A stretch of 64,000 bases of DNA from a virus: positions 21,262 through 85,261 of the IMG/VR virus record IMGVR_UViG_3300044697_000009. The stretch is one strand, 5' to 3'. The notes beneath the pieces are model-generated. The model saw nothing but the letters and a program-made list of their open reading frames with translations. It did no database searches and was not told where the DNA came from. Below, in pieces: positions 11,232 through 55,870 of the stretch. Position 1 is the first letter of the stretch. Each line of letters begins with the position of its first letter. The position numbers and the translations under genes were made by a program.

Positions 11232-12731
11232 TTATGATCTTTTAGGATAAGGAAAATTTGTCCAGGTTTTTTCTAGTTTCTCGTATTTATTTTTCTTTAA
11301 TAAAAGCACATACTTACCTTTTTTAGGTTTCTTTTTAATCGGTAAGTCCTTGTATTGTAGTCTTGCGTATTCATCAAGGAGTTGTTTCACCTCCAATGGC
11401 ATAGCCTTCCTGTTTTGAAACCCTCCTTCAGTATTCCATTCTGGAAGCCATTCTATACCTAGGTCTTTAGCATATTTTTTCATGCTAGATGTTCTTGTAA
11501 AATGCCGTTCAGTTACTTCTTTACCATCTTTAACATAGACCTGGGTTGATCCATAGTTTTTACCTAAGTAATCAAAATTACAAGCCTGGTATATAGTTCC
11601 TATTTCACCTGCATCAGGATCGCTATAAGCCGTAAATATACGTTTTTCTGTATTATTCACCATCCATCTACAACTAAACATAACTAGCCGTGAGCCTAAA
11701 TTCTTCGGAGTCCAGCTAGCGCAGGCTCCTCGTTGAATCAAGGCTTCTAATTTCTTATCGAATTGATAGCTATTAGGCTCAGCTATCATCACGACTCCGC
11801 CTAATAACCCGTTGTATCTAGCTGTAAACACGTATCTAACGCCAAATCCACAAGTCCCAAGCCATTCGTATCTTTCAATAAACTTTCTATGTTCATCCGT
11901 AATCTTTTCTTGAGCTAAAACGAATTCACTAGCTTTTACGTTTAAAGGCATTCCATTTTTGATGTCTTCTTTAAGTAGTTGATCTCTCTTAAGTTTTTGC
12001 CAACATACATTTTTTGGAAGACTATCTTTTTTAATATTTCTATTATAGTCGGAAAACTCAGGTTTTAAATTAGTGTAATGACATAATTCGTACATCTGTT
12101 GTTCGGTTCTAACTTTAGATAAAGGAATAACGTGATCTATATCCCATATTTCACCGTAGTTATCCCAAGTCATATTAGGTTGGAATTGAGACTCCAGATA
12201 CATTTTAAGTTCTTCTAGAGTACATCCTATGTATTCAGAAAAATGAGTGTCCTTTTTCCAAGACGTTCGTTTTAATGCGTAATATAACCTATTTCTGAGT
12301 CTTCGGCTTAATTTATAGAATAAATCATTTTTTTCTCGATCTTTTCTATAAGACCGTCTTTTTATTCTAATTATAGGCTTATTATCATGGTAATATTGTC
12401 TAGTTCTTTGTTTTATATTTTCTTTTTTAGATTCATAATATTTTTTAGTATTTATAGATCTGCATTCTTTACATTGTGTACATAATCCATCCGGATTGTT
12501 TTTATCTTTAGTAAAGTATTCGGCGGGTTTTTGAATGCCACAAGTTCTACAAATTTTTGAAGAAACTGATATAGAATTATTTTTTGGATTATTTAGACGA
12601 CGAATTCTTTTTTTCTTAGAACCGCAATTTCTGCAATATGTTCTATATCCGTCTTTAGTTAAACTATGTTTATTGAATTCACTTATATTATATTCTGTAT
12701 GACATAATGTACATGTTTTTCGATCAATCAT
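11232..12731 (-). CDS. Zn-finger/HNH endonuclease fused to a Mom-like (GNAT-fold) DNA modification domain
   Basis: Two CxxC...CxxC repeats; HNH-type WDIDHVIPLS...HYTNL; C-terminal AYSDPDAGEIGTIYQACNFDYLG resembles the Mom-family YAD-x5-GTIYQAxN motif. Confidence 0.7.
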   Translation of the reverse strand: MIDRKTCTLCHTEYNISEFNKHSLTKDGYRTYCRNCGSKKKRIRRLNNPKNNSISVSSKICRTCGIQKPAEYFTKDKNNPDGLCTQCKECRSINTKKYYESKKENIKQRTRQYYHDNKPIIRIKRRSYRKDREKNDLFYKLSRRLRNRLYYALKRTSWKKDTHFSEYIGCTLEELKMYLESQFQPNMTWDNYGEIWDIDHVIPLSKVRTEQQMYELCHYTNLKPEFSDYNRNIKKDSLPKNVCWQKLKRDQLLKEDIKNGMPLNVKASEFVLAQEKITDEHRKFIERYEWLGTCGFGVRYVFTARYNGLLGGVVMIAEPNSYQFDKKLEALIQRGACASWTPKNLGSRLVMFSCRWMVNNTEKRIFTAYSDPDAGEIGTIYQACNFDYLGKNYGSTQVYVKDGKEVTERHFTRTSSMKKYAKDLGIEWLPEWNTEGGFQNRKAMPLEVKQLLDEYARLQYKDLPIKKKPKKGKYVLLLKKNKYEKLEKTWTNFPYPKRS

Positions 12732-12829: not shown

Positions 12830-14071
12830 TTAGGTATTTACGATGTTGTTGACCAATACGTTTCTACCTGGGGCCATGCAAAATATCGCCTGATCCGAGT
12901 AGAGACGGAGTTCATAGGCTGCAGAGTTTTCCAAATCGCGGAAAAACTCTTCACCTTGACCAGGTCGTTTAAACGTCATATCAGTTGAACCAACTCGGAA
13001 CCATTCTTCCATAGCAAGGATATAAGCATAACCTTGTTTAACGTAGATAGAAGGCTCGATTTCGATCTCACCGTTTTGTGAGAAGAAACGGAGAGCTTTC
13101 CCACCGTTTTGGAGTTGAACAGAAGAATACGATTCGTCGTATCTGCGGAGAGCAGCTTGGTCAGACAGAACGTTTGACCAGGTACGAGGATTCAAGAGAG
13201 CCAAGACGTTACCATCGAGACCTTTTTCAACTGCACGAGCAGTCGCATAGTTCAAGATGTTAAACGAAAGAGCGGAACTTGAAGCGGAATACGTATTACC
13301 TTTCCAGAGGTTAAACTGAGCCGCGTTGATATTAAACAACGTAGTTTGATTCGTAAGAATCATATGGATACCAGGAAATTCGTTACCATAAGCGCCAGCG
13401 TGCCAGATAACGTCGTTAGTCTGAACGCCAGTAGCGTTAGTTGACAATGTAACGGTTTGAGCCGTCATATCAACAGCGGAAACTGAGAAGTTCCCACGAG
13501 ATGTCGAACCGTTGCTGGAACGAATCTCAATCGGCATACCTTCAGCACCAGCCCAGATACCAGGAGCCCATTCAGACGTAGTGATTGTAAGAACAGCGCC
13601 AGACGTACTAGCGATGGTCGCGTAACCAACTTGTCCATAGAGCATCTCGATTTCGAGCTTTTTAGCCATAGAACGGAGCATGTTGGCAACGAGGAATTTC
13701 GTCGCATCCATGAACGCTTTTTGACCACCAAGGGCTGCACGAGAAGCAGCGGCATAACCGAGCAGTGAACGAAGCACTACAGGATTACCACGGACTTGAG
13801 CATCCTTGATTTGACCAGCGATAGGAGCATTCAAATTGAAAGCATCTTCATCACTAGCAGCAAAGGTGATACCATGTTCCAGACCCAAGATAACAGGTTG
13901 ATGGTAAAGGTTACCAGGCTGTTTATCTTTAGACAGGAACTTGATTTTATTCATGAGCTTAACTCCATCAGGAATCAGCTCGCCAAGTTTATCAGCGTAG
14001 GTTTCTTTGAAGAAACCGTTAAGGGTACCAACCGAGTTATTCGGGGTACCAAATGTATTTGCACTCGCCAT
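12830..14071 (-). CDS. Major capsid protein (HK97 fold)
   Basis: 413 aa, downstream of the scaffold, AAGGAG SD, strongly biased codons and a terminator after it. The N-terminal LNGFFKETY pattern is seen in P22-like capsids. Confidence 0.85.
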   Translation of the reverse strand: MASANTFGTPNNSVGTLNGFFKETYADKLGELIPDGVKLMNKIKFLSKDKQPGNLYHQPVILGLEHGITFAASDEDAFNLNAPIAGQIKDAQVRGNPVVLRSLLGYAAASRAALGGQKAFMDATKFLVANMLRSMAKKLEIEMLYGQVGYATIASTSGAVLTITTSEWAPGIWAGAEGMPIEIRSSNGSTSRGNFSVSAVDMTAQTVTLSTNATGVQTNDVIWHAGAYGNEFPGIHMILTNQTTLFNINAAQFNLWKGNTYSASSSALSFNILNYATARAVEKGLDGNVLALLNPRTWSNVLSDQAALRRYDESYSSVQLQNGGKALRFFSQNGEIEIEPSIYVKQGYAYILAMEEWFRVGSTDMTFKRPGQGEEFFRDLENSAAYELRLYSDQAIFCMAPGRNVLVNNIVNT

Positions 14072-14766: not shown

Positions 14767-15672
14767 TTACACCCCAAAAAAGGTTTTGAAATTTACTTTC
14801 TTACCAGTTTCTTTAGGTTCTGCTTTTTTACCAACATCGAGAGTTTTGTTGGAACCAACGGCGACTTTTTCTTTCGCCCTAGCAACATTTTTCTTTCTAA
14901 TGCTGTTAATTTTGTCCTTACCAACAAGTTTCTCTACGACTTCATCAGGCATTACCTGAAACATGGACTTTAAGTCTTCCATTACTTCTTCACGAACCAA
15001 TGGAATAACGTCTTCTGGGAGGACGTCTTTACCATTTTGAAGCCCAACAAGCATATAATCTGCAATCTTTTTAACTATATACGGGGATTTAGGAAGATCA
15101 GTTTTTTGAAGTGCTTGATCCATAAGGATGTCATAACGTTCATATTGTTCTTCTGTAAGTCTTTGTTTTTGTTCTTCTAATGCAGCTTGCTTTTCTCTTT
15201 CACGTTCTTCTTTTAAGGCTTTAAGCTCAGCTTCAAGTTTTTCTTTAGCAAGTTGTTCAGGAGATTTCTTAGAGTCAGCAATTTCTTTCTCAATGATATC
15301 AGCTGCTAGTTTTTTAACATCTAGACCGATATGAGGGTCTGAAAGAACACGAGCTGGATCTTTTCGTAAATCTTCAATGAATTTAACTACTTCCTTTTGA
15401 AGACTTGAGAATTCTTCCATCCGTTTACCAGCGACTTTTGCCATCTGGAGTTGACGAGTGATGTATTCATCGTCATTTGGATCGAATTCTTCCTCGAATT
15501 CTTCACCGTCGACTTTGAGTTTAAATTTTCTTTTAGAAGGTGTGGAAGATTGAGCTGGTTTAGTCTGAGCTTGAGTTTCCTGAGTAGTTTCAGGGGTTTC
15601 AGCCGCAGTGTCTTGTGTTTCAATACTATCTGTTGCTTCTGGCGCCGCAGGAGCGGCTTGATCTTGTGCCAT
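14767..15672 (-). CDS. Capsid scaffolding protein
   Basis: Acidic disordered N-terminus, KLKVDGEE motif, coiled coil; upstream of the capsid. Confidence 0.75.
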   Translation of the reverse strand: MAQDQAAPAAPEATDSIETQDTAAETPETTQETQAQTKPAQSSTPSKRKFKLKVDGEEFEEEFDPNDDEYITRQLQMAKVAGKRMEEFSSLQKEVVKFIEDLRKDPARVLSDPHIGLDVKKLAADIIEKEIADSKKSPEQLAKEKLEAELKALKEEREREKQAALEEQKQRLTEEQYERYDILMDQALQKTDLPKSPYIVKKIADYMLVGLQNGKDVLPEDVIPLVREEVMEDLKSMFQVMPDEVVEKLVGKDKINSIRKKNVARAKEKVAVGSNKTLDVGKKAEPKETGKKVNFKTFFGV

Positions 15673-15754: not shown

Positions 15755-15982
15755 TTATACGGCTACACCTTTTTTACCTTTGATATTCAGATACGATTTA
15801 TCCTTTAAAGCCTTCATTGGGTCTTGAGAAGCCTTAGCTTCGGCAGTAGCTTTGCCAGGATTGATTAAATCTTGTACCCTAGTGAATTTCTTAGGTTTTT
15901 CTTTCTCTTTTTTCTTACTTGAATCACTATAAGTTTCTTTCATGTCAGGTAACAAACCGTTAAAAGTGTTTATGGATGCCAT
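15755..15982 (-). CDS. Small basic protein whose N-terminus resembles the capsid N-arm
   Basis: MASINTFNGLLPDMKETYSD vs capsid MASANTF...TLNGFFKETYAD. Has an AGGA SD and its own late motif. Confidence 0.65.
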   Translation of the reverse strand: MASINTFNGLLPDMKETYSDSSKKKEKEKPKKFTRVQDLINPGKATAEAKASQDPMKALKDKSYLNIKGKKGVAV

Positions 15983-33884: not shown

Positions 33885-33957
33885 AGTCCCGTAGCTCAAT
33901 GGTTAGAGCAGGCTCTTTATAAGGGTCAGGTTGCTGGTTCGAGTCCAGCCGGGACTA
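33885..33957 (+). tRNA. tRNA-Ile (anticodon UAU), CCA not encoded
   Basis: Acceptor AGTCCCG/CGGGACT, D arm GCTC-AATGGTTA-GAGC, anticodon arm GGCTC-TTTATAA-GGGTC, T arm GCTGG-TTCGAGT-CCAGC. Confidence 0.9.
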
Positions 33958-35083: not shown

Positions 35084-35917
35084 ATGCTTAATGAAAAAGC
35101 TGTATTAGTGAATCTTAAGATCTCCCAGTGGACTGGTCGGAAGTTTGATAAACGTGCAACGTCAACGGTCGTAACGACGCATAACACTGACGTACAGGCA
35201 GGTAACTATTCAAAGAAACTCTTACCCGGAGCAAAAGAACTTGACGCAATACAGAATACGTCAGCTAACATACGTAGCTTTTTTTATCAACAAACGTTGC
35301 CTTGGTGTAACGAAGGCTCTAGAATCCTTGCTAGTTCAAATTACCTAGGTTTCACTAACGCGATTCGTACCCATAAATCAGAATTCGAAACCGCTGTCAA
35401 GGAGTTTATTAAAAAATACCCAGAACTTAAGGACATGGCCAAGACTAAACTCGGTGATTTGTTCAACGACTACGAATACCCAGACGTTGCGACACTTCAA
35501 AACTCGTTTGGTTGCGAAGTTTCCTACATGCCGGTGCCTACAGTTGGTGACTTCCGCGTTGAGTTAACGCCTGAAGAAAAACAGAACTTCGAAAAACAAA
35601 TTAAACTTGCTGAGACTCAGGCATTAAACGACGTATGGCAACGTTTAAACTCGGTCGTATCAAAAGCAGTTGATAAACTAAAGTCTCCTGATGCCGTGTT
35701 TCGTGATTCACTAATTGAGAATATTCAAGATTTATGTAACCTTTTGCCAAGACTTAATGTCACTGAAAACGAAAACGTTGAGAAAATGCGGCAAGACGTA
35801 CAAAAAATTGTTGACAGCATTAGCGCTGAAGATTGTAGAAAAATCCCCGAAGTCCGTTCACATGCCGCCGAACGCCTTGATGAAGCAATGAAACGTATGT
35901 CTGGGTTTATTTCATGA
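35084..35917 (+). CDS. DUF3150-like helical protein of the AAA+/vWA module
   Basis: LVNLKISQWTGRKFD, TLPW and FNDYEYP; lies between the AAA+ and vWA genes. Confidence 0.6.
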   Translation: MLNEKAVLVNLKISQWTGRKFDKRATSTVVTTHNTDVQAGNYSKKLLPGAKELDAIQNTSANIRSFFYQQTLPWCNEGSRILASSNYLGFTNAIRTHKSEFETAVKEFIKKYPELKDMAKTKLGDLFNDYEYPDVATLQNSFGCEVSYMPVPTVGDFRVELTPEEKQNFEKQIKLAETQALNDVWQRLNSVVSKAVDKLKSPDAVFRDSLIENIQDLCNLLPRLNVTENENVEKMRQDVQKIVDSISAEDCRKIPEVRSHAAERLDEAMKRMSGFIS

Positions 35918-36117
35918 AACCTTTGACTGAACTCGAATACAAACTTTTAACGCCGGGCATGAAAGTTAAGTGTATTGATCATACACTTACAACGAGTCTT
36001 GAAAAATATAAAATCTATAAAGTAAAAACTATATGTTTTAATTGTATTGTTGTTGAAGAAACTCCGCATTTTTTACCGTTTGCTTATTCTAGATTTACGT
36101 TAGATTTAGGGGAATAA
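35914..36117 (+). CDS. Family A small SH3-like paralog (A1)
   Basis: MKPLTELEYKLLTPGMKVKC...RFTLDLGE. Confidence 0.7.
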   Translation: MKPLTELEYKLLTPGMKVKCIDHTLTTSLEKYKIYKVKTICFNCIVVEETPHFLPFAYSRFTLDLGE

Positions 36118-36119
36118 CT

Positions 36120-37238
36120 ATGAACGAAAAGATTTCAAAAGCAAAAGCATTGCTGGTACTTGATCAACCGTTTTTCGCAAGTCTCCTTTTGACGATGCCG
36201 ATTCATGAAGACAAAAAGATTACTACAATGGCAACAAACGGCGATTGGATCAAGTTTAACCCAGAATTCGTTGATAAATTATCGATTCAAGAACTTATCT
36301 TTGTCCTAGCGCATGAAACAATGCACTGCGTTTTCCAGCACATGCTTAGACGTGGGGATAAAAACCATAATAAATACAATATTGCGGGGGATTATGTCAT
36401 TAACGATCATTTGATTCGCGAACATGTAGGCGAAATGCCTCATGGCGGACTTCATAACCCCCAGTTAGTACAAGAAGGCAATGGGACGACTGAAGGCGTT
36501 TATGCCTTATTACCTAAGGAAGACGAACAAAAAACAGCGGGCAACATGGGTCAAGGTGGAAGCATGGATGAAGTCGAGTCCGATGACTTGACCCAGGCAG
36601 AAGCAAATCAAAAGTCTGAAGAAATGCGAGTCAAGGTTATTCAGGCAAAGAACGCGGCTAAGACGTGTGGCAAATTCTCAGCAGGCCTTGAGAGACTCGT
36701 TAATGATTTAACCCGCCCTAGAATTGACTGGAGAACAGTATTGAGACGATTCTTAAGCGATCGGGCAAAAGTTGATCTGAGTTATGCAAAACCTAAGCGG
36801 CGTTTCATGGCCGACGACGTAAACCTGCCAAGTCTGTTAGGTGAGCAGTTAGGTGAAATCGTCATTGCAGTTGATTGTTCAGGCAGTATTGATGACAAAC
36901 TTCTAAACGAGTTTGGTACTGAAATTTCAAGTATCAAAGAAGACACAAAACCAGTGAAAGTCCACGTAATTTATTTTGATTCTGAAGTCCTAAGGCATGA
37001 TGAATTCTCAAGAGACGACGACCTTCGCATCAACGCATGCGGTGGCGGTGGGACGGCATTCTCACCCGTGTTTAGATATATCCAAAACAAAAACATTAGC
37101 CCTGTGGCATGTGTATTTTTGACTGATCTTCAGTGCAATGACTTCGGTCAAACACCGAGTTACAATGTAATGTGGGCATCGACTGACAATGGCAATGCGC
37201 CGTTTGGTGAAATCTTATTATTGAAAGATGCCGCATGA
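36120..37238 (+). CDS. DUF2201-type metallopeptidase + vWA-like domain protein
   Basis: TMATNG, HETMH (HExxH), MIDAS-like DCSGS, GGGGTAF, FLTD. Confidence 0.85.
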   Translation: MNEKISKAKALLVLDQPFFASLLLTMPIHEDKKITTMATNGDWIKFNPEFVDKLSIQELIFVLAHETMHCVFQHMLRRGDKNHNKYNIAGDYVINDHLIREHVGEMPHGGLHNPQLVQEGNGTTEGVYALLPKEDEQKTAGNMGQGGSMDEVESDDLTQAEANQKSEEMRVKVIQAKNAAKTCGKFSAGLERLVNDLTRPRIDWRTVLRRFLSDRAKVDLSYAKPKRRFMADDVNLPSLLGEQLGEIVIAVDCSGSIDDKLLNEFGTEISSIKEDTKPVKVHVIYFDSEVLRHDEFSRDDDLRINACGGGGTAFSPVFRYIQNKNISPVACVFLTDLQCNDFGQTPSYNVMWASTDNGNAPFGEILLLKDAA

Positions 37239-37444
37239 AACCGTTAGATGAAATCTCTTTGAAGTTTTTAAAGCCCGGCACGAAACTTAAATGTATTAAT
37301 GCCATATATGAATTGAGAAATGGAGAAATATACGAATTTATGGAAATTTATTCCATTAACAATGGAAATATAACAATTAATTTAAAAAATGTTAAACATA
37401 CTTATTTCATTAACCGTTTTACACTAGACTTGGGATGTGAATGA
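37235..37444 (+). CDS. Family A small SH3-like paralog (A2)
   Basis: MKPLDEISLKFLKPGTKLKC...RFTLDLGCE. Confidence 0.7.
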   Translation: MKPLDEISLKFLKPGTKLKCINAIYELRNGEIYEFMEIYSINNGNITINLKNVKHTYFINRFTLDLGCE

Positions 37445-38088
37445 AAGCATTTAATAACAATACTTACATAAAACAAGAGATCGTGGGAAATCTAGTAAAA
37501 TCAAGATTCACATCTCAAAACATTACACTACAAACGGATTCATTACCGAAGTGGTTAGTCTTTTATTTAAATTGCCAACCTGATAAAAATAGAATTCTTG
37601 AAGTCATCAACGCTATAGAGCCGGGAATGGACTTAGATAATATAAAGCAGTTATTCATGATTCATGTCCTTGAATTCTCACTACTTCAGTTCGATCATTC
37701 AAAAAATCTGAAAGTTAAAAAAGCGATTATACAAGTAATAAATCTTTATAAACAAAACAATACTGACAAAAAAAAATGGAATGCCGCTCAATCCGCCGCT
37801 TATGCCGCCTCTAATGCTACTTATGCCGCTAATGCCATTAATGCCGCTTATGCCGCTAATGCCGCCTATGCCGCCTCTAATGCTACTTATGCCGCTAATG
37901 CCGCCGCCTATGCCGCCTCTAATGCTACTTATGCCGCTAATGCCGCTAATGCCGCCGCCTATGCCGCCGCCTATGCCGCCGCTAATGCTACTTATGCCGC
38001 TTGTGCCGCCGCTTATGCCGCCGCTCAAAACAGGTTATTAGACTACTTAATTAAATTAATACAAGACTTAAAGGTAAATGCTGCATGA
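37441..38088 (+). CDS. Ala-rich repeat protein
   Basis: AAYAA/ANAA repeats near the C-terminus. Confidence 0.7.
   Translation: MKAFNNNTYIKQEIVGNLVKSRFTSQNITLQTDSLPKWLVFYLNCQPDKNRILEVINAIEPGMDLDNIKQLFMIHVLEFSLLQFDHSKNLKVKKAIIQVINLYKQNNTDKKKWNAAQSAAYAASNATYAANAINAAYAANAAYAASNATYAANAAAYAASNATYAANAANAAAYAAAYAAANATYAACAAAYAAAQNRLLDYLIKLIQDLKVNAA
37781..38026 (+). repeat. Coding minisatellite of (T/A)ATGCCGC(C/T) units
   Basis: Several near-identical TATGCCGCCTCTAATGCTACTTATGCCGCTAATGCC blocks. Confidence 0.85.
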
Positions 38089-38309
38089 CTCCTATAACTA
38101 AAGACATGCTCATATATTTACAACGTGGGACGAAGGTAAAAAGCCTTGAAAATAGAGGCCACAGGGAAATTGGATTAGTAAAAGATAAGATTTATACGAT
38201 TAATAGAATTTATCCTACAGAAAGTTTAGATGGATATCTTTCATTACAAGAAGTTCCTAGTCCTATTTATTTATCAACTAGATTTACATTGGACTTAGAG
38301 GAAAAATGA
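38085..38309 (+). CDS. Family A small SH3-like paralog (A3)
   Basis: LIYLQRGTKVKS...RFTLDLEEK. Confidence 0.7.
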   Translation: MTPITKDMLIYLQRGTKVKSLENRGHREIGLVKDKIYTINRIYPTESLDGYLSLQEVPSPIYLSTRFTLDLEEK

Positions 38310-39739: not shown

Positions 39740-40062
39740 AAGTATTAGTGATTGAAAGTGACTACGACCTGGCTGAGAGTTTAAAACTAGCTATCAATAA
39801 CCTTGGTGCAGAAGTTGATATAGCATTTGATATAAAAACGGCAGCTAAGCTTTTGAATTACCATTATGATTTAATACTAGCTGACCATATGCTATTAAAA
39901 GTATCAGGGAATTTTGATATCTTATCTAAAGTCAAGTCTAATTCGGTCGTAGTCCTTTCTTCACTAACACCTAACGAAACAAAGGAATTGAAGTACAACC
40001 ATATACAAAAACCATTCGGATTAAAAGAAATAGAAGATTATATAAACCCTAAACACCCGTAG
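39736..40062 (+). CDS. Single-domain response regulator (REC)
   Basis: KVLVIESD, DLILAD (phosphoacceptor), VVLSS, KPF. Confidence 0.8.
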   Translation: MKVLVIESDYDLAESLKLAINNLGAEVDIAFDIKTAAKLLNYHYDLILADHMLLKVSGNFDILSKVKSNSVVVLSSLTPNETKELKYNHIQKPFGLKEIEDYINPKHP

Positions 40063-40268
40063 AAGTTTTATACACTTGGATTCTATAATAATTTCCTTAT
40101 GTTATAGTGTCTGAGTCTAATACTATCTAAGACTTATACATGGCAGAGTTTTAATTCTCTAATGATTTCAATCCCCTAACATTGGCACGAACTGTGAAAT
40201 ACCAATTACCAGACAGCACGAGTAACGAGACGATAAGATCTACTCGGAAGCAAGTCGAAGTAAGGTGG

Positions 40269-40296
40269 TTGACTTCAAGTATTGAGATGACATAAT
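40269..40296 (+). promoter_or_regulatory. Sigma70-type promoter for the candidate ncRNA
   Basis: TTGACT-16-CATAAT with TG extension. Confidence 0.5.
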
Positions 40297-40309
40297 GTAG
40301 GTAAATTAG

Positions 40310-40650
40310 TGGACGGTCTTTAGACTTATGGAACTAGTTCGAAACATTAGTAGTCGGTATCAAGTAAACCTTGCAAGCTTAACAAGTACTATGAGAAAAA
40401 GTCGTTGCTTTTTCCATGGGATACGGATGGCGGGTTACCATCACGGGACGAATCTCCCGGCGGACAGCGGACCTTACTTACCTCGGGGCTTTAATGCCTA
40501 AAACACAGGGGTTATACGGAATCACGAAACACGCGGTTTCCCAAGAGAAGTACGGCAACGATGCTTTAACCGTGGAAATAAGGATTCTTTCGAATAAAAG
40601 TCGAAACGGCGGGATAGCATGGCCTAGGCCTAAACTTTCCTAGCTGTCTA
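40310..40650 (+). ncRNA. Candidate ~340-nt structured ncRNA
   Basis: GC-richer segment with paired ends (TGGACGGT/GCTGTCTA), multiple nested hairpins and a GCAA tetraloop. Confidence 0.5.
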
Positions 40651-40668
40651 ACGATGAGGTCGTTACTG

Positions 40669-40866
40669 ATGAGACTATCTAAAACTGTAATTATTAAAAT
40701 GACTAGAAAAGATGCCGAAGAATTAGGTCTTCTGATTTGTAAATGTGGGCATCCTAGAAACAATCATTTTGATTTTGATGAAAAACCTTGCGCACATTGT
40801 CCATGTAAATATTTTCACGAAATTTCTCGACGTGGTATTATAATTAAATCAAGGAGTAAAAAATGA
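40669..40866 (+). CDS. Small Zn-binding protein
   Basis: CKCGH-x4-H...CAHCPC; GAGGT SD. Confidence 0.6.
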   Translation: MRLSKTVIIKMTRKDAEELGLLICKCGHPRNNHFDFDEKPCAHCPCKYFHEISRRGIIIKSRSKK

Positions 40867-40973
40867 TAATTAGTACATCCAATTGCATGGTTTCTTTATT
40901 TAATCTTTTTTGGATTTAAAGTAGGAAGAAAATGTAAAATGAGATACTTTGAATATCAAGTTAGGAATCGAAA

Positions 40974-41303
40974 ATGAAGTTTTACTTAACAATATTCGCA
41001 TTGATTTTATTAGGCTGTAGTCCTGGAGACTACGCTACGTTACAAGGCCCACCAGGGCCGCAAGGTCCTATTGGAAATCCTGGTAGTAGTGTTACAATGG
41101 TACAGTTTTGTTCGAATTATTCAACTACATACCCGTCAACATTTCCTGAATACGGATTCTGTGTATCAAATAATCTTTATGCAACGTATTGGAATGGGAC
41201 AGATGCTTGGACTGCGGAAATCGTACCTGGGTATTATGATTCAACATCAACGTCTGCTCCTTGTAGTTTTACTGTTTTACCTAACTGTGTGGTGGAAAAT
41301 TGA
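40974..41303 (+). CDS. Lipoprotein with a short collagen-like segment
   Basis: LLGC lipobox, GPPGPQGPIGNPG. Confidence 0.7.
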   Translation: MKFYLTIFALILLGCSPGDYATLQGPPGPQGPIGNPGSSVTMVQFCSNYSTTYPSTFPEYGFCVSNNLYATYWNGTDAWTAEIVPGYYDSTSTSAPCSFTVLPNCVVEN

Positions 41304-41521
41304 ATCGCAAATACAAACGTCTTAATAAATTTATGTTGAAATTCTTACAACCCGGAGTTAAAGTAAAATACGTAGGAAATCTTCGAGAAAATCATCATTA
41401 TAAATTAAAACGTTATAAAGTCTATGAATTCATTAATTATTTTGGTTACAATCATGTGATTATTCATGCTGAGAATCGTAATATCAACGTTCCATGCCAT
41501 GCATTTACATTGGATATCTAA
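41300..41521 (+). CDS. Family A paralog (A4)
   Basis: LKFLQPGVKVK...AFTLDI. Confidence 0.7.
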   Translation: MNRKYKRLNKFMLKFLQPGVKVKYVGNLRENHHYKLKRYKVYEFINYFGYNHVIIHAENRNINVPCHAFTLDI

Positions 41522-41733
41522 TGAAGACATTTCCTAAACATTTAAAAAAACTTCTAGTACCTGGAGTTAAACTAAAGTGTGTAGATGATTCTTCAAATAC
41601 GCGTAAAGATAAAATAAAAATGAATGAGATTTACACATTTGACGGCTGGCATGAAGTATGGGACAATGAAATTTATATAAAAGAAAACAATCAGTCTTGG
41701 TTTATAGATCGGTTTACATTGGATTTAGAATGA
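41521..41733 (+). CDS. Family A paralog (A5)
   Basis: LKKLLVPGVKLKC...RFTLDLE. Confidence 0.7.
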   Translation: MKTFPKHLKKLLVPGVKLKCVDDSSNTRKDKIKMNEIYTFDGWHEVWDNEIYIKENNQSWFIDRFTLDLE

Positions 41734-42044
41734 CCCTCACTGCTGAAGCATTAAAATTTTTGCCAGATGGCACAAGACTTAGAAGCCTAGTGAATGATGT
41801 TGGTCTTGAATTTAATAAAATCTATACTTTAGATATATTTCCTAAGACTTATTCCACACTTAATGGAATGTTAAAAGAATTATACGCAGATAAATTAATT
41901 GAATTAATTCCTGATGGCGTAGGTTTATTATCTAAAATCAAGTTTAATCGCACTGAATTTAAAACACAAGTATTATCACTCAAAGAATTTCCATATAAAG
42001 AATTCCCTATTAGTTATTTTTCTCTAGACTTGGAGTCATTATGA
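41730..42044 (+). CDS. Family A paralog (A6) carrying an inserted capsid N-arm copy
   Basis: LKFLPDGTRL...TLNGMLKELYADKLIELIPDGVGLLSKIKF...YFSLDLE. Confidence 0.75.
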   Translation: MTLTAEALKFLPDGTRLRSLVNDVGLEFNKIYTLDIFPKTYSTLNGMLKELYADKLIELIPDGVGLLSKIKFNRTEFKTQVLSLKEFPYKEFPISYFSLDLESL

Positions 42045-42216
42045 AAATGAAAATCGTTGAATCCTTGAAACCAATCTGTGTAATCTGTGGCGAAAAAAAC
42101 CTAGAGTTGTATTACAATGACACAGAAGTCCGGTGTTTAAAATGTATTCCAACAGGGCATAATGTCGAAACTAGAAATGAAACGTTTGAAGTCAAGAAAC
42201 CTGAGGCGTTACACTA

Positions 42217-42498
42217 ATGTGGAAAGTTGGCGATAAAATCAAATGTATTTTATATGATGGCGATTCTATCCAACCTTGGATAACTATAGGAAAGACCTAT
42301 GAAATACTCGAAGTCATAAAAAATTATCATTACGATAATGAACATAAAGATAAATATAATCAACAATATAGAATAATGAATGACCAAGGTGGAAGTTGGT
42401 GGATACAACCGCATTGTTTTAAACTAGTATTTAAAACTACGGGCCCAGAGAAATCTGAAGTCGAAATCCTGGATAGAATACAAGAGAATTTTAAATGA
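42217..42498 (+). CDS. Family B paralog (B1)
   Basis: MWKVGDKIKC...SEVEILDRIQENFK. Confidence 0.7.
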   Translation: MWKVGDKIKCILYDGDSIQPWITIGKTYEILEVIKNYHYDNEHKDKYNQQYRIMNDQGGSWWIQPHCFKLVFKTTGPEKSEVEILDRIQENFK

Positions 42499-42713
42499 AA
42501 CCATTAGATGAAACTACAGTAAAATTCCTAACGCCCGGAGTGAAATTAAAATGTATCGTTAAGGGGGAAAAATATTCTCTACAAACAAATAAAACATACA
42601 CATTTAACAACATATCTGGAATAATTAACGATATAACAGTAATTTGTGTTATGGAAGGAAATAAAAAATTAGGCCCATATTTTGCTTATAGATTTACATT
42701 GGATTTAGAATGA
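42495..42713 (+). CDS. Family A paralog (A7)
   Basis: MKPLDETTVKFLTPGVKLKC...RFTLDLE. Confidence 0.7.
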   Translation: MKPLDETTVKFLTPGVKLKCIVKGEKYSLQTNKTYTFNNISGIINDITVICVMEGNKKLGPYFAYRFTLDLE

Positions 42714-42913
42714 CTGATATTGAATACAAACTTTTAACTCCAGGTATGAAAATAAAACGTATTAAGATTTCAACGGCGGTTTATAATATAAAAATAGGGA
42801 GTATATCCACAGTTGAGAAAACATTTGAACTTATTGATAGAAAATTTATTCAAGTTAAAGAATGCGATCAGTTTTGGTATTTTCATGAAGATTTTACATT
42901 GGAGATTGATTAA
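42710..42913 (+). CDS. Family A paralog (A8)
   Basis: EYKLLTPGMKIK...DFTLEID. Confidence 0.7.
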   Translation: MTDIEYKLLTPGMKIKRIKISTAVYNIKIGSISTVEKTFELIDRKFIQVKECDQFWYFHEDFTLEID

Positions 42914-43079
42914 TGTACCACATCTATGACAATGGTAAACGAATCACAATCACGCCCGTGTCATATAATTTCGTCTTGACAAATCTATTCCCAACTGCCA
43001 AAATAGACACTATGACGCTATCAAGTCTAAAACCAGGGGAAGAATACAATTATCATCAATATAAATTCGTGAGACAAGT

Positions 43080-43364
43080 ATGAAAATTAAAGCAAAGCTC
43101 ATGGACCAAAGTATTATTCTAGAAAACAATGGATTTGAATGGATAGTAACAGAAAGTAATGTACTTGACACACCTAAAAACACTACGTTTAAAACGTTAG
43201 TTGAGTTTCAATTCCATCACCCTTGGTATTCATTAGAAGAAATCGGAATAGAAGAATATTACGTAGGATGTATTCATGACTTAAAAATACGAGAAATCTT
43301 TATAACTCGTGAAGAATATTGTACTAAATGTAATTATACAAGAACTTTAAAACCTGGAGAATGA
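43080..43364 (+). CDS. Hypothetical protein with a C-terminal Cys/His cluster
   Basis: CIH...CTKC. Confidence 0.55.
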   Translation: MKIKAKLMDQSIILENNGFEWIVTESNVLDTPKNTTFKTLVEFQFHHPWYSLEEIGIEEYYVGCIHDLKIREIFITREEYCTKCNYTRTLKPGE

Positions 43365-43365
43365 A

Positions 43366-44754
43366 ATGAAACGAAGTCTTAAATCACTTCAAGGTATGTT
43401 TCCAATCGTAGCTCAAGTCTCTCCTTATCCAGGATATAAACGTCCTGGAGAGAATTTCTTTCATTATATGCCTTATAACTTTGAAGTATCTGAAATCATT
43501 ATTACTAAAATCCAATATCAAGAAAATAATAATATCATGACCTTAAATTATATTCCATTATCTACACCAGATTCGTTCTTTGAACGAACAATTCATATTG
43601 ATGATGAATTCATAATTGAAGTCCTAACGGGCAAGAAACGTAAGGACATCATGGCTAAGTATTATACTTATCTTAATGAAAATCTTTCCCGGCTTAACTA
43701 TCTCCAGTTCAGAATTGGAAGTGATCCTGAATTCTTTGTTGAAGATTCAAAAGGTGAAATTATTCCTAGTTTTAAATTTCTCGGTAGTAAACAACAACCT
43801 AGTCATACATGGGGACAAATTCAAGTCGGAAGTCTTATTGAAGCTACAAATCAAAAAATGTATTGGGATGGCTTCCAGGCCGAATTTGAAACTCTTGCTT
43901 CGACTTGTTTTGGGTGGTTAGTAGATAGTATTTGGTATGGTTTGAAAGGATTATACGAAGAAGCTAAGAAATTTAACCCTGAAGCTAAAATTTCAGCTAA
44001 AACTCTTGTTGAAATTCCTATGAAAGAATTTGAAGCAACAGATCCGAAGTTCCTCGAATTTGGTTGTATGCCAAGTAAAAATGCTTACGGACTTAATGCT
44101 CCATTACTTAATGGAACGCAGACTAGACTTAGATCTACAGGTGGACATATTCACTTCGGTATTGGAAAAATGCCTGAGTATAAATATAGAGAAGTAGTTA
44201 AGACTCTTGACGCAATTCTTGGAGTTGCTTGTGTCGCATTGTTTCAAGGTCATGATCATCCTGAAAGACGAATGATGTACGGACTTCCTGGTGAATATAG
44301 AACACCTCAACACGGTCTTGAATATCGAGTACTTAGTAATGCTTGGATGTTTCATCCATTGATATCTAATCTTGTATTAGACTTATCTCGACAATCATTT
44401 AGATTCGGTGCCGCTGGACTTCGTAAACAATGGAAAACTTCAGAAGAAGAAACTATTGCTTGTATCAAGAATTGTGACGTTAAACTTGCTCAAGAAATCC
44501 TAAGTCGAAACAAAGACCTTTTCTTAAAACTTCTTGGTAGTTGTTATACACAATACATGACTAATAAAGAAGTCTTGACATTGTTATATAACATCTTCTA
44601 TAATGGAATGGATACTGCGATTAAGAATCCAAAGGATATCGTAGGTAATTGGTGTCTTGAAGGTGAAGGATTGTGGCGTGGGCATTCAAATGGAACTGGA
44701 AAACAAGTAAATACTGGTGTTCAAATCTTGATTACCGGCGATAAAGCCGCATAA
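43366..44754 (+). CDS. phiEco32-like COOH-NH2 ligase type 2
   Basis: IGSDPEFF, DGFQAEF, FGCMPS.NAY, RSTGGHIHFG, YGLPGEYR, GLEYRVLSN.W. Confidence 0.85.
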   Translation: MKRSLKSLQGMFPIVAQVSPYPGYKRPGENFFHYMPYNFEVSEIIITKIQYQENNNIMTLNYIPLSTPDSFFERTIHIDDEFIIEVLTGKKRKDIMAKYYTYLNENLSRLNYLQFRIGSDPEFFVEDSKGEIIPSFKFLGSKQQPSHTWGQIQVGSLIEATNQKMYWDGFQAEFETLASTCFGWLVDSIWYGLKGLYEEAKKFNPEAKISAKTLVEIPMKEFEATDPKFLEFGCMPSKNAYGLNAPLLNGTQTRLRSTGGHIHFGIGKMPEYKYREVVKTLDAILGVACVALFQGHDHPERRMMYGLPGEYRTPQHGLEYRVLSNAWMFHPLISNLVLDLSRQSFRFGAAGLRKQWKTSEEETIACIKNCDVKLAQEILSRNKDLFLKLLGSCYTQYMTNKEVLTLLYNIFYNGMDTAIKNPKDIVGNWCLEGEGLWRGHSNGTGKQVNTGVQILITGDKAA

Positions 44755-49265: not shown

Positions 49266-49505
49266 ATGTTTAAAGCTGGCGATAAAGTTATGGTAATAAT
49301 CCCCATAGGTCATTTACAACAGAATGATATTAGAACTCTTAGAATCCATCACTATACAAAAAAACTTTATATACCTCACAATGAAGGTACTAAAGAAGGA
49401 TGGTGGGTTGAAGGAAATGAAAAATGTTTAAAATTACTACAAAAGCCCGCACCTAAAACAGAAATAGAAGCTTTAGATCGTTTTCAACAGAATTTTAAAT
49501 ACTAA
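49266..49505 (+). CDS. Family B paralog (B2)
   Basis: MFKAGDKV...TEIEALDRFQQNFKY. Confidence 0.7.
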   Translation: MFKAGDKVMVIIPIGHLQQNDIRTLRIHHYTKKLYIPHNEGTKEGWWVEGNEKCLKLLQKPAPKTEIEALDRFQQNFKY

Positions 49506-49514
49506 GGAGATTAT

Positions 49515-50600
49515 ATGTGTAAAATTTGTATCATCCCTGGAATTACCGACAAGACTACAGAACTCGTTTGGAAATTCATTACAAAAATGTCAAAAGAAAT
49601 GTCTGGATATTCTGAAACCGATGGATTTGGATATGCAGCTTTTGACGGCCAAGGTAATTTGTTTGGTGAACGTTGGCTTAATCCTAAAGAAGCATTCTCA
49701 AACCGTGATGAAAAAAATATCCTCGTACAAGAATTGATTCATAAATACAAAGGATTCTTGAGAGGAAAGCTTCCTATCTACAATAAATTCGGCGAAGGTA
49801 ATATGAATAGTCTTAGGACTGCTATACTTCACGCAAGGAATGCAACAACCGAGAAAGGACTCATCAATGTCCATCCTTTTGTTCATGGAGACTCGGCATT
49901 GATCCATAACGGAATAATCGCAAATCATGAACAACTTCACAAAAAATACTCTACATGTGATAGTGAAGTCATATTGACTGAATACAATAAATTTAACGTA
50001 ACTAACAATATTAAGAACATCAATAACGTTGCATCAAAACTTGATGGATATTATGCATGTAGTGTATTATCTAAAACTGATGACAATAAGTACATAGTCG
50101 ATGTATTTAAAGAAGATTCGGCAAGACTTAAAGGTTATTTCATCAAGGAATTTAATACTGTTGTATTCGCTACTCCCGGTGCAAATGATACCTACGGTCC
50201 GATTCAATCCGTATGTCGAGACTTAAACCTAACTATTGTGGACGAATTTGATCTTGAAGACTCAAGTCTCCTTCGAATGGATGCAATGACCGGCGAAGTC
50301 TTAGATATGTGCAAGTTCAATTCTAAATTCAAGAAAGGTAAACGAGAAGTCACTGTTATTGATAAATGGACTCAAGAATTCGGTAACCATAACCGTGGCG
50401 GCGGCAGTCAACGAAGTTTCTCTGAAAAACAAAAAGATGAAGAACTTGAACGTCAGTTACTTGAGAATCTTTCATTTATGAACTACGAAGACGATACAAA
50501 AGAATTCACGGTATTGAATCAAGAAACGAAGTTCAATGAAGCCGGAGACTGGGAACAATCTGAGAATGGTGTCTGGAGAAAGAAAACGGCGGCACAATGA
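49515..50600 (+). CDS. Class II (Ntn) glutamine amidotransferase
   Basis: Cys2 (MCKI), DGFG, HARNAT, NVHPF, HNGII, DSE. Confidence 0.9.
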   Translation: MCKICIIPGITDKTTELVWKFITKMSKEMSGYSETDGFGYAAFDGQGNLFGERWLNPKEAFSNRDEKNILVQELIHKYKGFLRGKLPIYNKFGEGNMNSLRTAILHARNATTEKGLINVHPFVHGDSALIHNGIIANHEQLHKKYSTCDSEVILTEYNKFNVTNNIKNINNVASKLDGYYACSVLSKTDDNKYIVDVFKEDSARLKGYFIKEFNTVVFATPGANDTYGPIQSVCRDLNLTIVDEFDLEDSSLLRMDAMTGEVLDMCKFNSKFKKGKREVTVIDKWTQEFGNHNRGGGSQRSFSEKQKDEELERQLLENLSFMNYEDDTKEFTVLNQETKFNEAGDWEQSENGVWRKKTAAQ

Positions 50601-50839
50601 CTAGAAAGTTCAAACCTGGAGACAAAGTTCTAAGAACTATTGATTCTGGAGCCTATGGAATCACAGTCCCAGGGCAAATCTATACAGTGAAAAGAACGAA
50701 AGACAACGGACATATAGCATTAGTCGAATGCCCAGATGGATTTGGATATTCAATGAAATCGTTTACTTTAGTAAGTACTGCTCCATTAACGGAATTTGAA
50801 TGGTTAGATAGAGTACAGGAGAATTTTAAAGATGTATGA
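50597..50839 (+). CDS. Family B paralog (B3)
   Basis: KFKPGDKV...TEFEWLDRVQENFKDV. Confidence 0.7.
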   Translation: MTRKFKPGDKVLRTIDSGAYGITVPGQIYTVKRTKDNGHIALVECPDGFGYSMKSFTLVSTAPLTEFEWLDRVQENFKDV

Positions 50840-54270: not shown

Positions 54271-54350
54271 GAGGCTGTAGTTTAATGGTAAAACAATCAG
54301 GCGGAGAGTAATCCCTGAATAAGTTCTACGTTCGAGTCGTAGCGGCCTCA
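54271..54350 (+). tRNA. tRNA-like element with an aberrant extended anticodon arm (identity undetermined)
   Basis: Acceptor GAGGCTG/CGGCCTC, D arm GTTT-AATGGTA-AAAC and T arm CTACG-TTCGAGT-CGTAG are canonical. The anticodon arm TCAGG-12 nt-CCTGA is not. Confidence 0.65.
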
Positions 54351-54850: not shown

Positions 54851-55436
54851 AGATTTAAGATATAACGGAAAAATTATTTTTCCTGAAGAAAAGTTGATGT
54901 TTAAGGCATTGGAATTAACACCAATTGAAAAGGTTAAAGTTGTAATATTGGCCCAGGATTGTTATCATGGAGAAAGACAAGCAAATGGGTTAGCTTTCTC
55001 GGTAAATAGAGGTGAGAAAATACCACCGTCACTACAGAACATTTTCCTTGAACTTTGTACAGATCTTGATATTCCAGTACCTAGTCATGGAGATTTAACT
55101 AAGTGGGCGGAACAAGGTGTATTACTTCTGAATTCTGTATTAACTGTTGAGAAAGGTAAACCTGGTAGTCATTTTGGTATTGGCTGGGAGGATTATACAA
55201 ATAATATTATTAAAAAAGTGAATCAAAAACAAACGCCTGTAGTATTTATGTTGTGGGGAAAGAAAGCACAAGAAAAATCATATCTTATAGATAATAGTAT
55301 CCATCTTGTACTAACTGCAAGTCATCCTTCACCTCTGTCCGCTTATCGTGGATTTTTAGGATGCGGTTGTTTTAGTGAATGTAACAAGTTCTTAGAATCT
55401 AGATCTATTTCAGGAATTGACTGGAGACTTGAATAA
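54789..55436 (+). CDS. ung: Uracil-DNA glycosylase, family 1
   Basis: VKVVILAQDCYH (variant of GQDPYH), GLAFSV, PPSL.NI, WA.QGVLLLN, HPSPLS. Confidence 0.9.
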   Translation: MMNMQNSFLVNLPEQTLKQIKDLRYNGKIIFPEEKLMFKALELTPIEKVKVVILAQDCYHGERQANGLAFSVNRGEKIPPSLQNIFLELCTDLDIPVPSHGDLTKWAEQGVLLLNSVLTVEKGKPGSHFGIGWEDYTNNIIKKVNQKQTPVVFMLWGKKAQEKSYLIDNSIHLVLTASHPSPLSAYRGFLGCGCFSECNKFLESRSISGIDWRLE

Positions 55437-55870
55437 TGCGTGTCGGTGATGTAGTAACTCCATACAAGAAAATGTATGATAAGTTTAAACCTAGACGTTT
55501 AGAATATGGAAAGAAATATATTGTAACTGAATTTGCTAGAACTGAAATCGAAGATAGGAAATACGGACTTCAAGGAGTTCGACTTAGATATTTAAATGGA
55601 CAACCAGTAGGTGAATATTATGTAAATAATAAAAACGTAGGATATCCATATCCCATGACAATGTTCTATATAGTGGAACAACGAGGTAAACCAGTATCTG
55701 AAATCGAGTACTTAGACCGTATACAAAAGAACTTTAAAGATGATGAAGTTAAACCTAGGTATTCAGTAGCTCAAATAAGAAATCTTATGGATACAATAAA
55801 TAATACGAATGTTGATGAAGTTATTAATATTGATGAAGTTATTGAAGAAATCATGGGTACGGAAGAATAA
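55436..55870 (+). CDS. Family B paralog (B5) with an acidic extension
   Basis: MRVGDVV...SEIEYLDRIQKNFKDD. Confidence 0.65.
   Translation: MRVGDVVTPYKKMYDKFKPRRLEYGKKYIVTEFARTEIEDRKYGLQGVRLRYLNGQPVGEYYVNNKNVGYPYPMTMFYIVEQRGKPVSEIEYLDRIQKNFKDDEVKPRYSVAQIRNLMDTINNTNVDEVINIDEVIEEIMGTEE

Follow-up and report, generated by a model that had tools for sequence, protein, structure and literature searches.

Here, we show using similarity searches, structure modelling and comparison with related phages that a small open reading frame (ORF) in a 64,000-nucleotide stretch of phage DNA (IMG/VR record IMGVR_UViG_3300044697_000009, positions 21,262 to 85,261; hereafter the window) carries a 30-codon copy of the N-terminal arm of the major capsid protein. 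The ORF, at 41730-42044, encodes a 104-amino-acid (aa) SH3-like mini-protein, and the copy sits in the middle of its predicted barrel. Copies of the same capsid segment recur on unrelated small proteins of related phages. We tentatively read the copy as a selected capsid-arm mimic that may bring its carrier to the machinery of head assembly. The window makes up the final 64 kb of a single 85,261-bp phage record with direct terminal repeats, and the argument turns on the following parts of it (evidence in brackets; HMM, hidden Markov model; AF2, AlphaFold2).

41730..42044, plus strand: arm-bearing gene, 104 aa, a divergent 'FTLDL' SH3-like mini-protein (ORF, family HMM, AF2, VIA-align)
41730..41855, plus strand: N-terminal half of the predicted barrel, strands 16-19 and 31-35 (family HMM positions 3-41)
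41856..41945, plus strand: 30-codon copy of capsid residues 16-45 (BLASTP; capsid-only profile E 2.7e-17)
41946..42041, plus strand: C-terminal half of the predicted barrel, strands 81-84, 87-93 and 97-99 (family HMM positions 48-71)
12830..14071, minus strand: major capsid protein, HK97 fold, 413 aa (Foldseek, PHROGs, model)
13937..14026, minus strand: capsid N-terminal arm segment, residues 16-45, the source type of the copy (BLASTP, capsid alignment)

Residues 43-72 of the 104-aa protein align without gaps to capsid residues 16-45, with 23/30 identities (BLASTP pair E 7e-13). When the 510 ORFs of 35 aa or more from the whole 85,261-bp genome were compared all against all by BLASTP, this match (E 1.1e-10) was the sole similarity joining the structural and the non-structural parts, and it spans a distance of 28 kb from copy to capsid gene. 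Copy and resident arm share 60/90 nucleotides, with 9, 4 and 17 differences at the three codon positions; of the 30 codons, 12 are unchanged, 11 carry synonymous differences and 7 encode another residue. The initial annotation of this DNA had reported both the 23/30 copy and, by hand count, synonymous differences at 11 of the 23 identical residues, and both figures prove exact. In its GC content at third codon positions, the copy (0.17) is like its host gene (0.22) and unlike the capsid arm (0.50).

The same annotation had named the segment a capsid N-terminal arm, and the properties of the capsid protein bear this out. Foldseek places it nearest to a phage VP1 capsid (E 1.7e-8), followed by SU10, HK97 and encapsulins (to E 1e-4), and it matches phrog_14242, a major head protein (E 4.5e-15); on these profile and model matches it is an HK97-fold major capsid protein. 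In the model, an N-terminal arm helix at residues 17-32, of low confidence, precedes the spine helix at residues 117-145. Among 8,000 scored candidates, 2,408 are metagenomic homologues at E <= 1e-5, and the best 120 are 73-82% identical. The 30-residue arm segment is nearly invariant in these 120 capsids, and the most conserved block of the capsid covers residues 32-63.

Where does the copy come from? It is identical to every one of the 120 capsids at 21-25 of its 30 residues (23/30 for the resident one), and departs from them at F6L and N26S, positions that are invariant in the capsids, and at K23G, where 119/120 have Lys. The alignments identify it as a true homologue of the capsid N-terminal arm. 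The DNA comparison excludes that the copy arose recently from the resident capsid gene or from that of any sampled relative, because synonymous sites are saturated and the best match among 41 arm loci reaches 64/90 nucleotides; the initial annotation had come to the same view for the resident gene. The proportion of synonymous differences (pS) is 0.78 between the copy and the resident arm, with a median of 0.80 between the copy and 42 arms and of 0.81 between one arm and another (861 pairs). Since capsid genes are equally saturated against each other, this saturation gives no age for the copy. Degenerate-pattern scans yielded no closer donor: a first scan of IMG/VR returned 24 stretches, all in capsid genes, a second returned 2, and a scan of metagenomes returned 4, namely three capsids at 20-22/30 and one unrelated stretch. 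The nearest capsids thus stay at the 25/30 residues and 64/90 nucleotides given above.

The host of the copy is one of eight paralogs, the 'FTLDL' family (family A). The other seven members, all without the copy and all recognised from alignment A1 and the family HMM, are these.

35914..36117, plus strand: family member
37235..37444, plus strand: family member
38085..38309, plus strand: family member
41336..41521, plus strand: family member, whose longest ORF starts at 41300
41521..41733, plus strand: family member directly upstream of the arm-bearing ORF
42495..42713, plus strand: family member, also supported by Atlas structure neighbours
42710..42913, plus strand: family member

These seven proteins are 61-74 aa long and have their ends in common with the 104-aa protein, without its middle. 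The family motifs are an N-terminal L-x-PG-x-K-x-K type, a central K-I-Y and a C-terminal F-T/S-L-D-L, and the C-terminal barrel half of the arm-bearing protein terminates with the FSLDLE-type tail. An HMM of the seven finds the arm-bearing ORF (E 2.9e-6) as two separate stretches, HMM 3-41 and 48-71, on either side of the insert, which amounts to a net insertion of ~36 residues relative to the family; as a control, profile A1 recovered 8/8 family members in the phage's own genome. The loop of the family is hypervariable in both length and sequence. The start codon of the arm-bearing ORF overlaps the upstream stop as ATGA, in a series of small genes linked through overlaps of this type, an arrangement by which the gene is predicted to be translationally coupled to its neighbours.

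AF2 on the family alignment predicts a five-stranded core, with a predicted local distance difference test (pLDDT) score of 81-91 for residues 1-30 and 81-100. Aligned by VIA-align, this core has a best Z of 6.3 with a root-mean-square deviation of 2.5 over 61 aligned residues (CPH domain, ribosomal L24/KOW); many SH3 domains follow at Z 4.7-5.7, 24 chains reach Z >= 5 and none Z >= 8, and SH3, KOW or Tudor chains account for almost all of the 50 best matches. The Atlas structure neighbours of the paralog at 42495 have TM scores of 0.59-0.71 (CPH, KOW, L21e), and Foldseek with the core of the 104-aa protein gave no match at E <= 1e-3 (only E > 0.2). With Z values that are middling, the modelled protein is an SH3-like small beta-barrel at the level of fold class. 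Because pLDDT falls below 50 at residues 40-63 and 65-76 while the core is confident, the copy is predicted to form a flexible loop that leaves the barrel after strand 2 and rejoins it at strand 3, with a helix at protein residues 48-59. The initial annotation had described a graft in the variable core of a family of SH3-like proteins whose seven other members are shorter and lack it; this description agrees with alignment A1 (61-74 versus 104 aa), with the flanking HMM pieces and, for the fold, with the structural comparisons.

A Pfam search of family A gave no match, and PHROGs gave only phrog_16125, of unknown function, for one member. In 15 related records the family A profile matched only G001 (E 1.2e-4), in an ORF that resembles the other mini-protein family. 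We also considered that the family's own N-terminal motif might be akin to the capsid arm, and rejected this as the seven-member HMM has no capsid match at E <= 10 among the 510 ORFs. Separately, an 80-aa ORF at 50597-50839 (plus strand) is a weak extra match to the family A HMM (E 5.5e-4); it shares a C-terminal segment with the ORFs at 49266-49505 and 55436-55870, which form the other mini-protein family.

The 104-aa protein itself appears to be a singleton. Of 9 candidates from a word-indexed search of 5.8 billion proteins, only the protein itself was significant. The same kind of search with residues 38-80 gave 10 candidates, none at E <= 10; with so many capsids in existence this is surprising, and the result is weak evidence. 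An exhaustive phmmer search of 1.84 billion representatives gave 8 matches at E <= 1e-3, with no true relative among those examined: the protein itself, two proteins of more than 1,500 aa (6 matched stretches each), and five short capsid N-termini, either exon-1 products or truncated ones. BLASTN with 41000-43500 as the query returned nothing from GenBank phages. The phage is uncultured, and the sole sequencing runs with the stretch of the 104-aa ORF are peat metagenomes, including 2 DNA runs, with 0 differences.

Is the arm copy, too, confined to this genome? We screened 15 related genomes with capsid residues 1-60 as the query, and then 61 related IMG/VR records with profile A4, built from arms and copies; to guard against circularity, profile A6 was rebuilt from capsid arms only, and E values are per genome. 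With the capsid query, for which the phage's own genome served as positive control, 2/15 relatives had a second match outside the capsid gene: G006 (E 5.3e-6, residues 16-46) and G014 (E 0.016, residues 16-43). Profile A4 added G017, which is the same phage as G014 (99.8% nucleotide identity), G052 (E 7.9e-5), G039 (E 0.006) and G050 (E 0.009); its matches in G001, G012 and G048 were insignificant. The capsid-only profile A6 recovered the own copy (E 2.7e-17), G014 (1.1e-6), G006 (1.8e-6), G052 (1.7e-4) and G039 (1.8e-3), and did not find the copy in G050. Compared with the capsid of its own phage, the copy is identical at 15/28 positions in G006 (E 7e-7), 12/28 in G014 (E 6e-6), 13/35 in G052 (E 4e-4) and 11/23 in G050 (E 6e-4). 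On these matches, arm copies outside the capsid gene are solid in the window's phage, G006, G014/G017 and G052, and probable in G039 and G050.

The carriers are mutually unrelated orphans, for which a Pfam search found no family. In G006 the copy makes up the last 31 residues of a 146-aa orphan that is followed by an HNH gene and is present in 1/27 genomes. In G014 it is C-terminal in a 62-aa ORF within a run of twelve tiny coupled ORFs, and in G050 it stands near the C-terminal end of a Cys-rich frame of ~106 aa. The G052 carrier is a 55-aa ORF that has the arm helix first, followed by a basic tail common to its neighbours, and the G039 carrier is a 46-aa basic ORF upstream of the scaffold gene, with the copy N-terminal. 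Two of these neighbourhoods are unusual in themselves. The G014 run (L094 1922-4139) consists of twelve ORFs of 38-62 aa with 4-nucleotide overlaps that are 17-33% identical to the arm-bearing one. In G052, four adjacent small ORFs (L178 1327-2362) have a basic tail of the K-K-R-K-x-K-x-N-L-P type in common; one of them starts with the arm helix and two others are weakly like other N-terminal blocks of the capsid (E 0.005 and 0.013). The initial annotation would have given up its reading for a graft unique to this genome and free of purifying selection. The 104-aa protein is indeed unique to it, whereas the arm segment recurs on unrelated small proteins of related phages, and this recurrence favours selection.

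The three full copies (own, G006 and G014) align without gaps over the same 30 columns; Tyr10, Leu17, Pro19 and Ile28 are invariant across them, and Asn3 is kept. All three end at capsid residue 45, even though the most conserved block of the capsid extends from residue 32 to residue 63, and the 3' edge of the copy is therefore real. The hydrophobic positions of the resident arm are kept at 12/12, 11/12 and 11/12 (own, G006, G014), and polar positions vary freely. We simulated neutral change up to the observed nucleotide distance from the resident arm, charging all divergence to the copy. The mean amino acid identities were 11.7, 6.3 and 7.9 against 23, 15 and 12 observed (P < 5e-5, < 5e-5 and 0.02), and the chances of escaping a stop codon were 0.24, 0.12 and 0.11. 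Taken together, the copy looks selected.

What would selection maintain? In the reading that we prefer, tentatively and as possible rather than probable, the SH3-like barrel would show the arm copy (an amphipathic helix, a Pro turn and a short strand) on a flexible loop, and the copy would be kept since it still does the arm's task of binding a head-assembly partner. By analogy with other HK97-fold phages, this partner may be the C-terminal tip of the scaffold or the arm socket of a neighbouring capsid subunit. Much as an address label does, the copy would then direct its carrier to the surface or the interior of the procapsid during assembly, or it would modulate assembly. It is the binding, its partner and its consequence that we infer. 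In 80alpha, the C-terminal helix and hook of the scaffold pack on the capsid N-terminal arm helix through hydrophobic contacts, as passages of PMC5644958 describe, and parts of the literature on P22, SPP1 and phi29 point the same way. As the hydrophobic face of the copy is kept, the arm's contact with the scaffold should be kept too, which favours docking. Two features near the capsid gene bear on this.

14767..15672, minus strand: putative scaffolding protein, 301 aa (position and composition only; no family hit)
15755..15982, minus strand: 75-aa ORF just upstream of the putative scaffold gene (weak N-terminal capsid likeness, E 0.02)

The putative scaffold has an acidic N-terminus, a coiled-coil middle, a basic C-terminus and a conserved FFG-type tip; a complex prediction of its C-terminal 117 residues with the 104-aa protein scored 0.00, which weighs neither for nor against docking. 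Aligned with one gap to capsid residues 1-27, the 75-aa ORF shows 13 identities, and its tail is Lys-rich. Its weak likeness to the capsid N-terminus lies in its first 20 residues, and the arm profile did not match it in the phage's own genome. It has a homologue in L004 (53% identity), and the 46-aa carrier of G039 is similar. Small Lys-rich ORFs with capsid-like N-termini just before the scaffold gene, here and in G039, fit docking.

Several observations weigh against docking. The 104-aa protein is found only in this phage, and the two DNA runs that contain it are probably its source and offer no variants. The copy is internal here, not terminal, and has lost three residues that are invariant or nearly so in the 120 capsids (F6L, K23G, N26S). 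The gene lies in the non-structural arm, whereas genes for packaged proteins often accompany the late genes. The scaffold owes its name to position and composition only, and the G052 mini-ORFs that resemble other capsid blocks (E 0.005-0.013) fit epitope display better than a scaffold tag. Lastly, the simulation puts the whole divergence on the copy, although the constrained capsid lineage adds synonymous changes as well; when the copy's lineage is given only half of these differences, neutrality is not rejected for the own copy (Fisher P 0.22). Because the own copy taken alone thus leaves neutrality standing, the case for selection rests on recurrence and on the diverged yet intact copies of G006 and G014.

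A rather unlikely explanation, and the next after docking, is a tolerated mosaic without function, in which a fragment of a capsid gene (the phage's own, long ago, or that of a co-infecting relative) came to lie in frame in the permissive loop of a dispensable paralog. The singleton status of the protein, the hypervariable family loop and the modelled disorder of the copy all suit this account, as does the unrejected neutrality when synonymous change is shared with the capsid lineage. It also has a plausible supply of fragments, since recombination in this clade is concentrated in the 5' part of the capsid gene. In ~22/55 related capsid loci, including L024, L030, L032, L034, L036, L041 and L045, the gene is interrupted within its first 90 codons, whereas the window's own capsid gene is uninterrupted. 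Breaks fall after approximately residues 21, 49, 53-57, 63-67 and 86-90, at about eight sites and up to three per gene. The intervening sequences in 3/5 searched loci match the group I intron model RF00028 below the gathering threshold (28-40 bits, E 4e-7 to 1.5e-3), and an Rfam search of 10 loci at the gathering threshold found no family; one ORF, at L034 2217-2876, resembles a GIY-YIG endonuclease by its motif. Capsid genes of relatives that are split just after the arm, as at L034 and L041, explain the short 'mini-capsid' proteins of the databases, and in one exon-1 product, P0127, capsid similarity ends exactly after residue 45, at the 3' edge of the copy. With so many loci split, broken ends from the arm region are expected to be common, and the arm-coding region is their likely source; intron-linked breakage is a possible route by which the arm was captured. 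The crowding of group I introns into the first 90 codons of a capsid family is also of interest for the biology of introns and homing endonucleases.

Against a functionless mosaic stand intact, in-frame copies in at least three other phages, 40-54% identical, with 11/12 hydrophobic positions and the Asn, Tyr and Pro kept and no insertion or deletion, together with the simulated chance of only 0.11-0.24 of escaping a stop codon alone. The window has no intron signal at E <= 0.1 and no intron or endonuclease lies next to the copy, and no relative of the HNH gene that adjoins the G006 copy turned up among the capsid-intron loci. For a related candidate, that the 104-aa ORF is itself the exon-1 product of an intron-split capsid gene, the absence of an intron signal, the position of the copy inside another protein and the 28 kb to the capsid gene led us to reject it.

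Alternatively, an arm mimic made before the capsid might occupy a host abortive-infection sensor of the arm without firing it. We consider such a decoy unlikely, as a full-text literature search found no phage-encoded capsid-peptide decoy and an early mimic could equally trigger the sensor prematurely. It would nevertheless account for several features: an arm that is nearly invariant in 120 capsids only 73-82% identical overall is a good target for a sensor, the genes lie in the non-structural arm, the copies vary at polar positions and keep the hydrophobic face as expected if binding is kept and activation lost, and the adjacent mini-ORFs of G052 are weakly like other capsid blocks. If the copies are decoys, they would form an unrecognised layer of the capsid-sensing arms race.

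A weapon against co-infecting relatives, titrating their scaffold or capping their capsid subunits while its diverged residues spare resident assembly, seems quite improbable. In its favour, the clade is abundant and diverse (2,408 capsid homologues among the 8,000 scored candidates) with an almost unchanged arm, and each arm-bearing gene is lineage-specific like accessory competition genes, but the resident arm is as close to the copy (23/30) as those of rivals (21-25/30), so that self-sparing is not evident. More broadly, and speculatively, this clade might repeatedly evolve 'self-mimics' of the N-terminal arm, made apart from the head genes, that blind host sensors or poison the head assembly of relatives. 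We hold this general scheme to be unlikely; if true, it would be a strategy of counter-defence or competition by copying one's own capsid, of which the G052 array would be the most developed form. Of the interpretation in the initial annotation, the homologous N-terminal arm copy in the loop of an SH3-like paralog, not recently duplicated, stands, while the functions it offered (decoy, assembly inhibitor or adaptor) remain proposals.

The genomic setting of the arm-bearing gene is as follows. Head and tail genes occupy the minus strand up to ~27 kb of the window, and from ~28 kb the plus strand holds non-structural genes that include metallopeptidase/VWA, phiEco32-type COOH-NH2 ligase, amidoligase and GATase genes, as well as two tRNA genes.

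33885-33957, plus strand: tRNA gene (Rfam RF00005, 66.6 bits)
54271-54350, plus strand: tRNA gene (Rfam RF00005, 47.1 bits)

The label 'early' that the arm-bearing ORF had been given is drawn only from its position on the strand opposite the head and tail genes. A scan of 40000-43600 gave 25 promoter-like sites, against 17.7 +/- 4.2 in shuffled sequence, and no terminator. A peat metatranscriptome contig of 208 nucleotides is identical to 42052-42259, just downstream of the arm-bearing ORF, and DNA carry-over is possible; the ORF itself lies outside this contig. Directly after the capsid gene, a 499-aa ORF (11232-12731, minus strand) keeps its position in several relatives, being 72% identical in G001 and 52% in L003, often with one half only. 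G001, whose capsid is 79% identical, has little in common with the window's non-structural arm (27800-64000, plus strand), where 10 ORFs have a tblastn match at E <= 1e-4, mostly at 23-43% identity.

Finally, how does the copy compare with known systems? A full-text literature search found no description of phage proteins that copy a capsid arm. In T4, the capsid targeting sequence (CTS) of internal proteins is N-terminal and is removed by the head protease. Diverse internal proteins of T4 share only this sequence, which addresses them to the scaffolding core of the prohead, according to passages of PMC3012670. The likeness to the CTS of IPI-III lies in one short peptide common to otherwise unrelated small proteins, as found in the window's phage, G006, G014 and G052. 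However, the CTS is not a capsid copy, the arm copy lies inside its carrier here and at the carrier's C-terminus in G006 and G014, and no protease gene or cleavage site was identified. A second parallel is CpmB of SaPI1, which, as described in parts of PMC5644958, acts by mimicry at the interface of scaffold and N-terminal arm of the HK97-fold 80alpha capsid, with a helix on the arm helix. CpmB is a satellite-encoded mimic of the scaffold side, whereas here the phage itself imitates the capsid side. A competing scaffold of the CpmB type was therefore rejected for the 104-aa protein, as its copied segment comes from the capsid and not from the scaffold.

Capsid proteins also trigger abortive infection, as the Gol peptide of T4 gp23 does with Lit and the capsid protein does with CapRel. 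These systems resemble the present case in that short conserved capsid segments serve as recognisable molecular patterns, and differ from it in that the trigger is a segment of the capsid protein itself and not a separate gene; we know of no separate phage gene described as displaying such a segment. Encapsulin cargo-loading peptides are short terminal peptides that dock cargo inside an HK97-fold shell, but they do not copy the shell protein, and the compartment they serve is cellular, not viral. Head-addressing peptides and mimicry at the scaffold/capsid interface are thus already known, and it is the self-copied capsid arm on accessory proteins that we did not find described. If the copies bind scaffold or capsid, an abundant clade of environmental phages would gain a natural 30-residue tag that can be moved between proteins, and with it a means of studying how its heads assemble.

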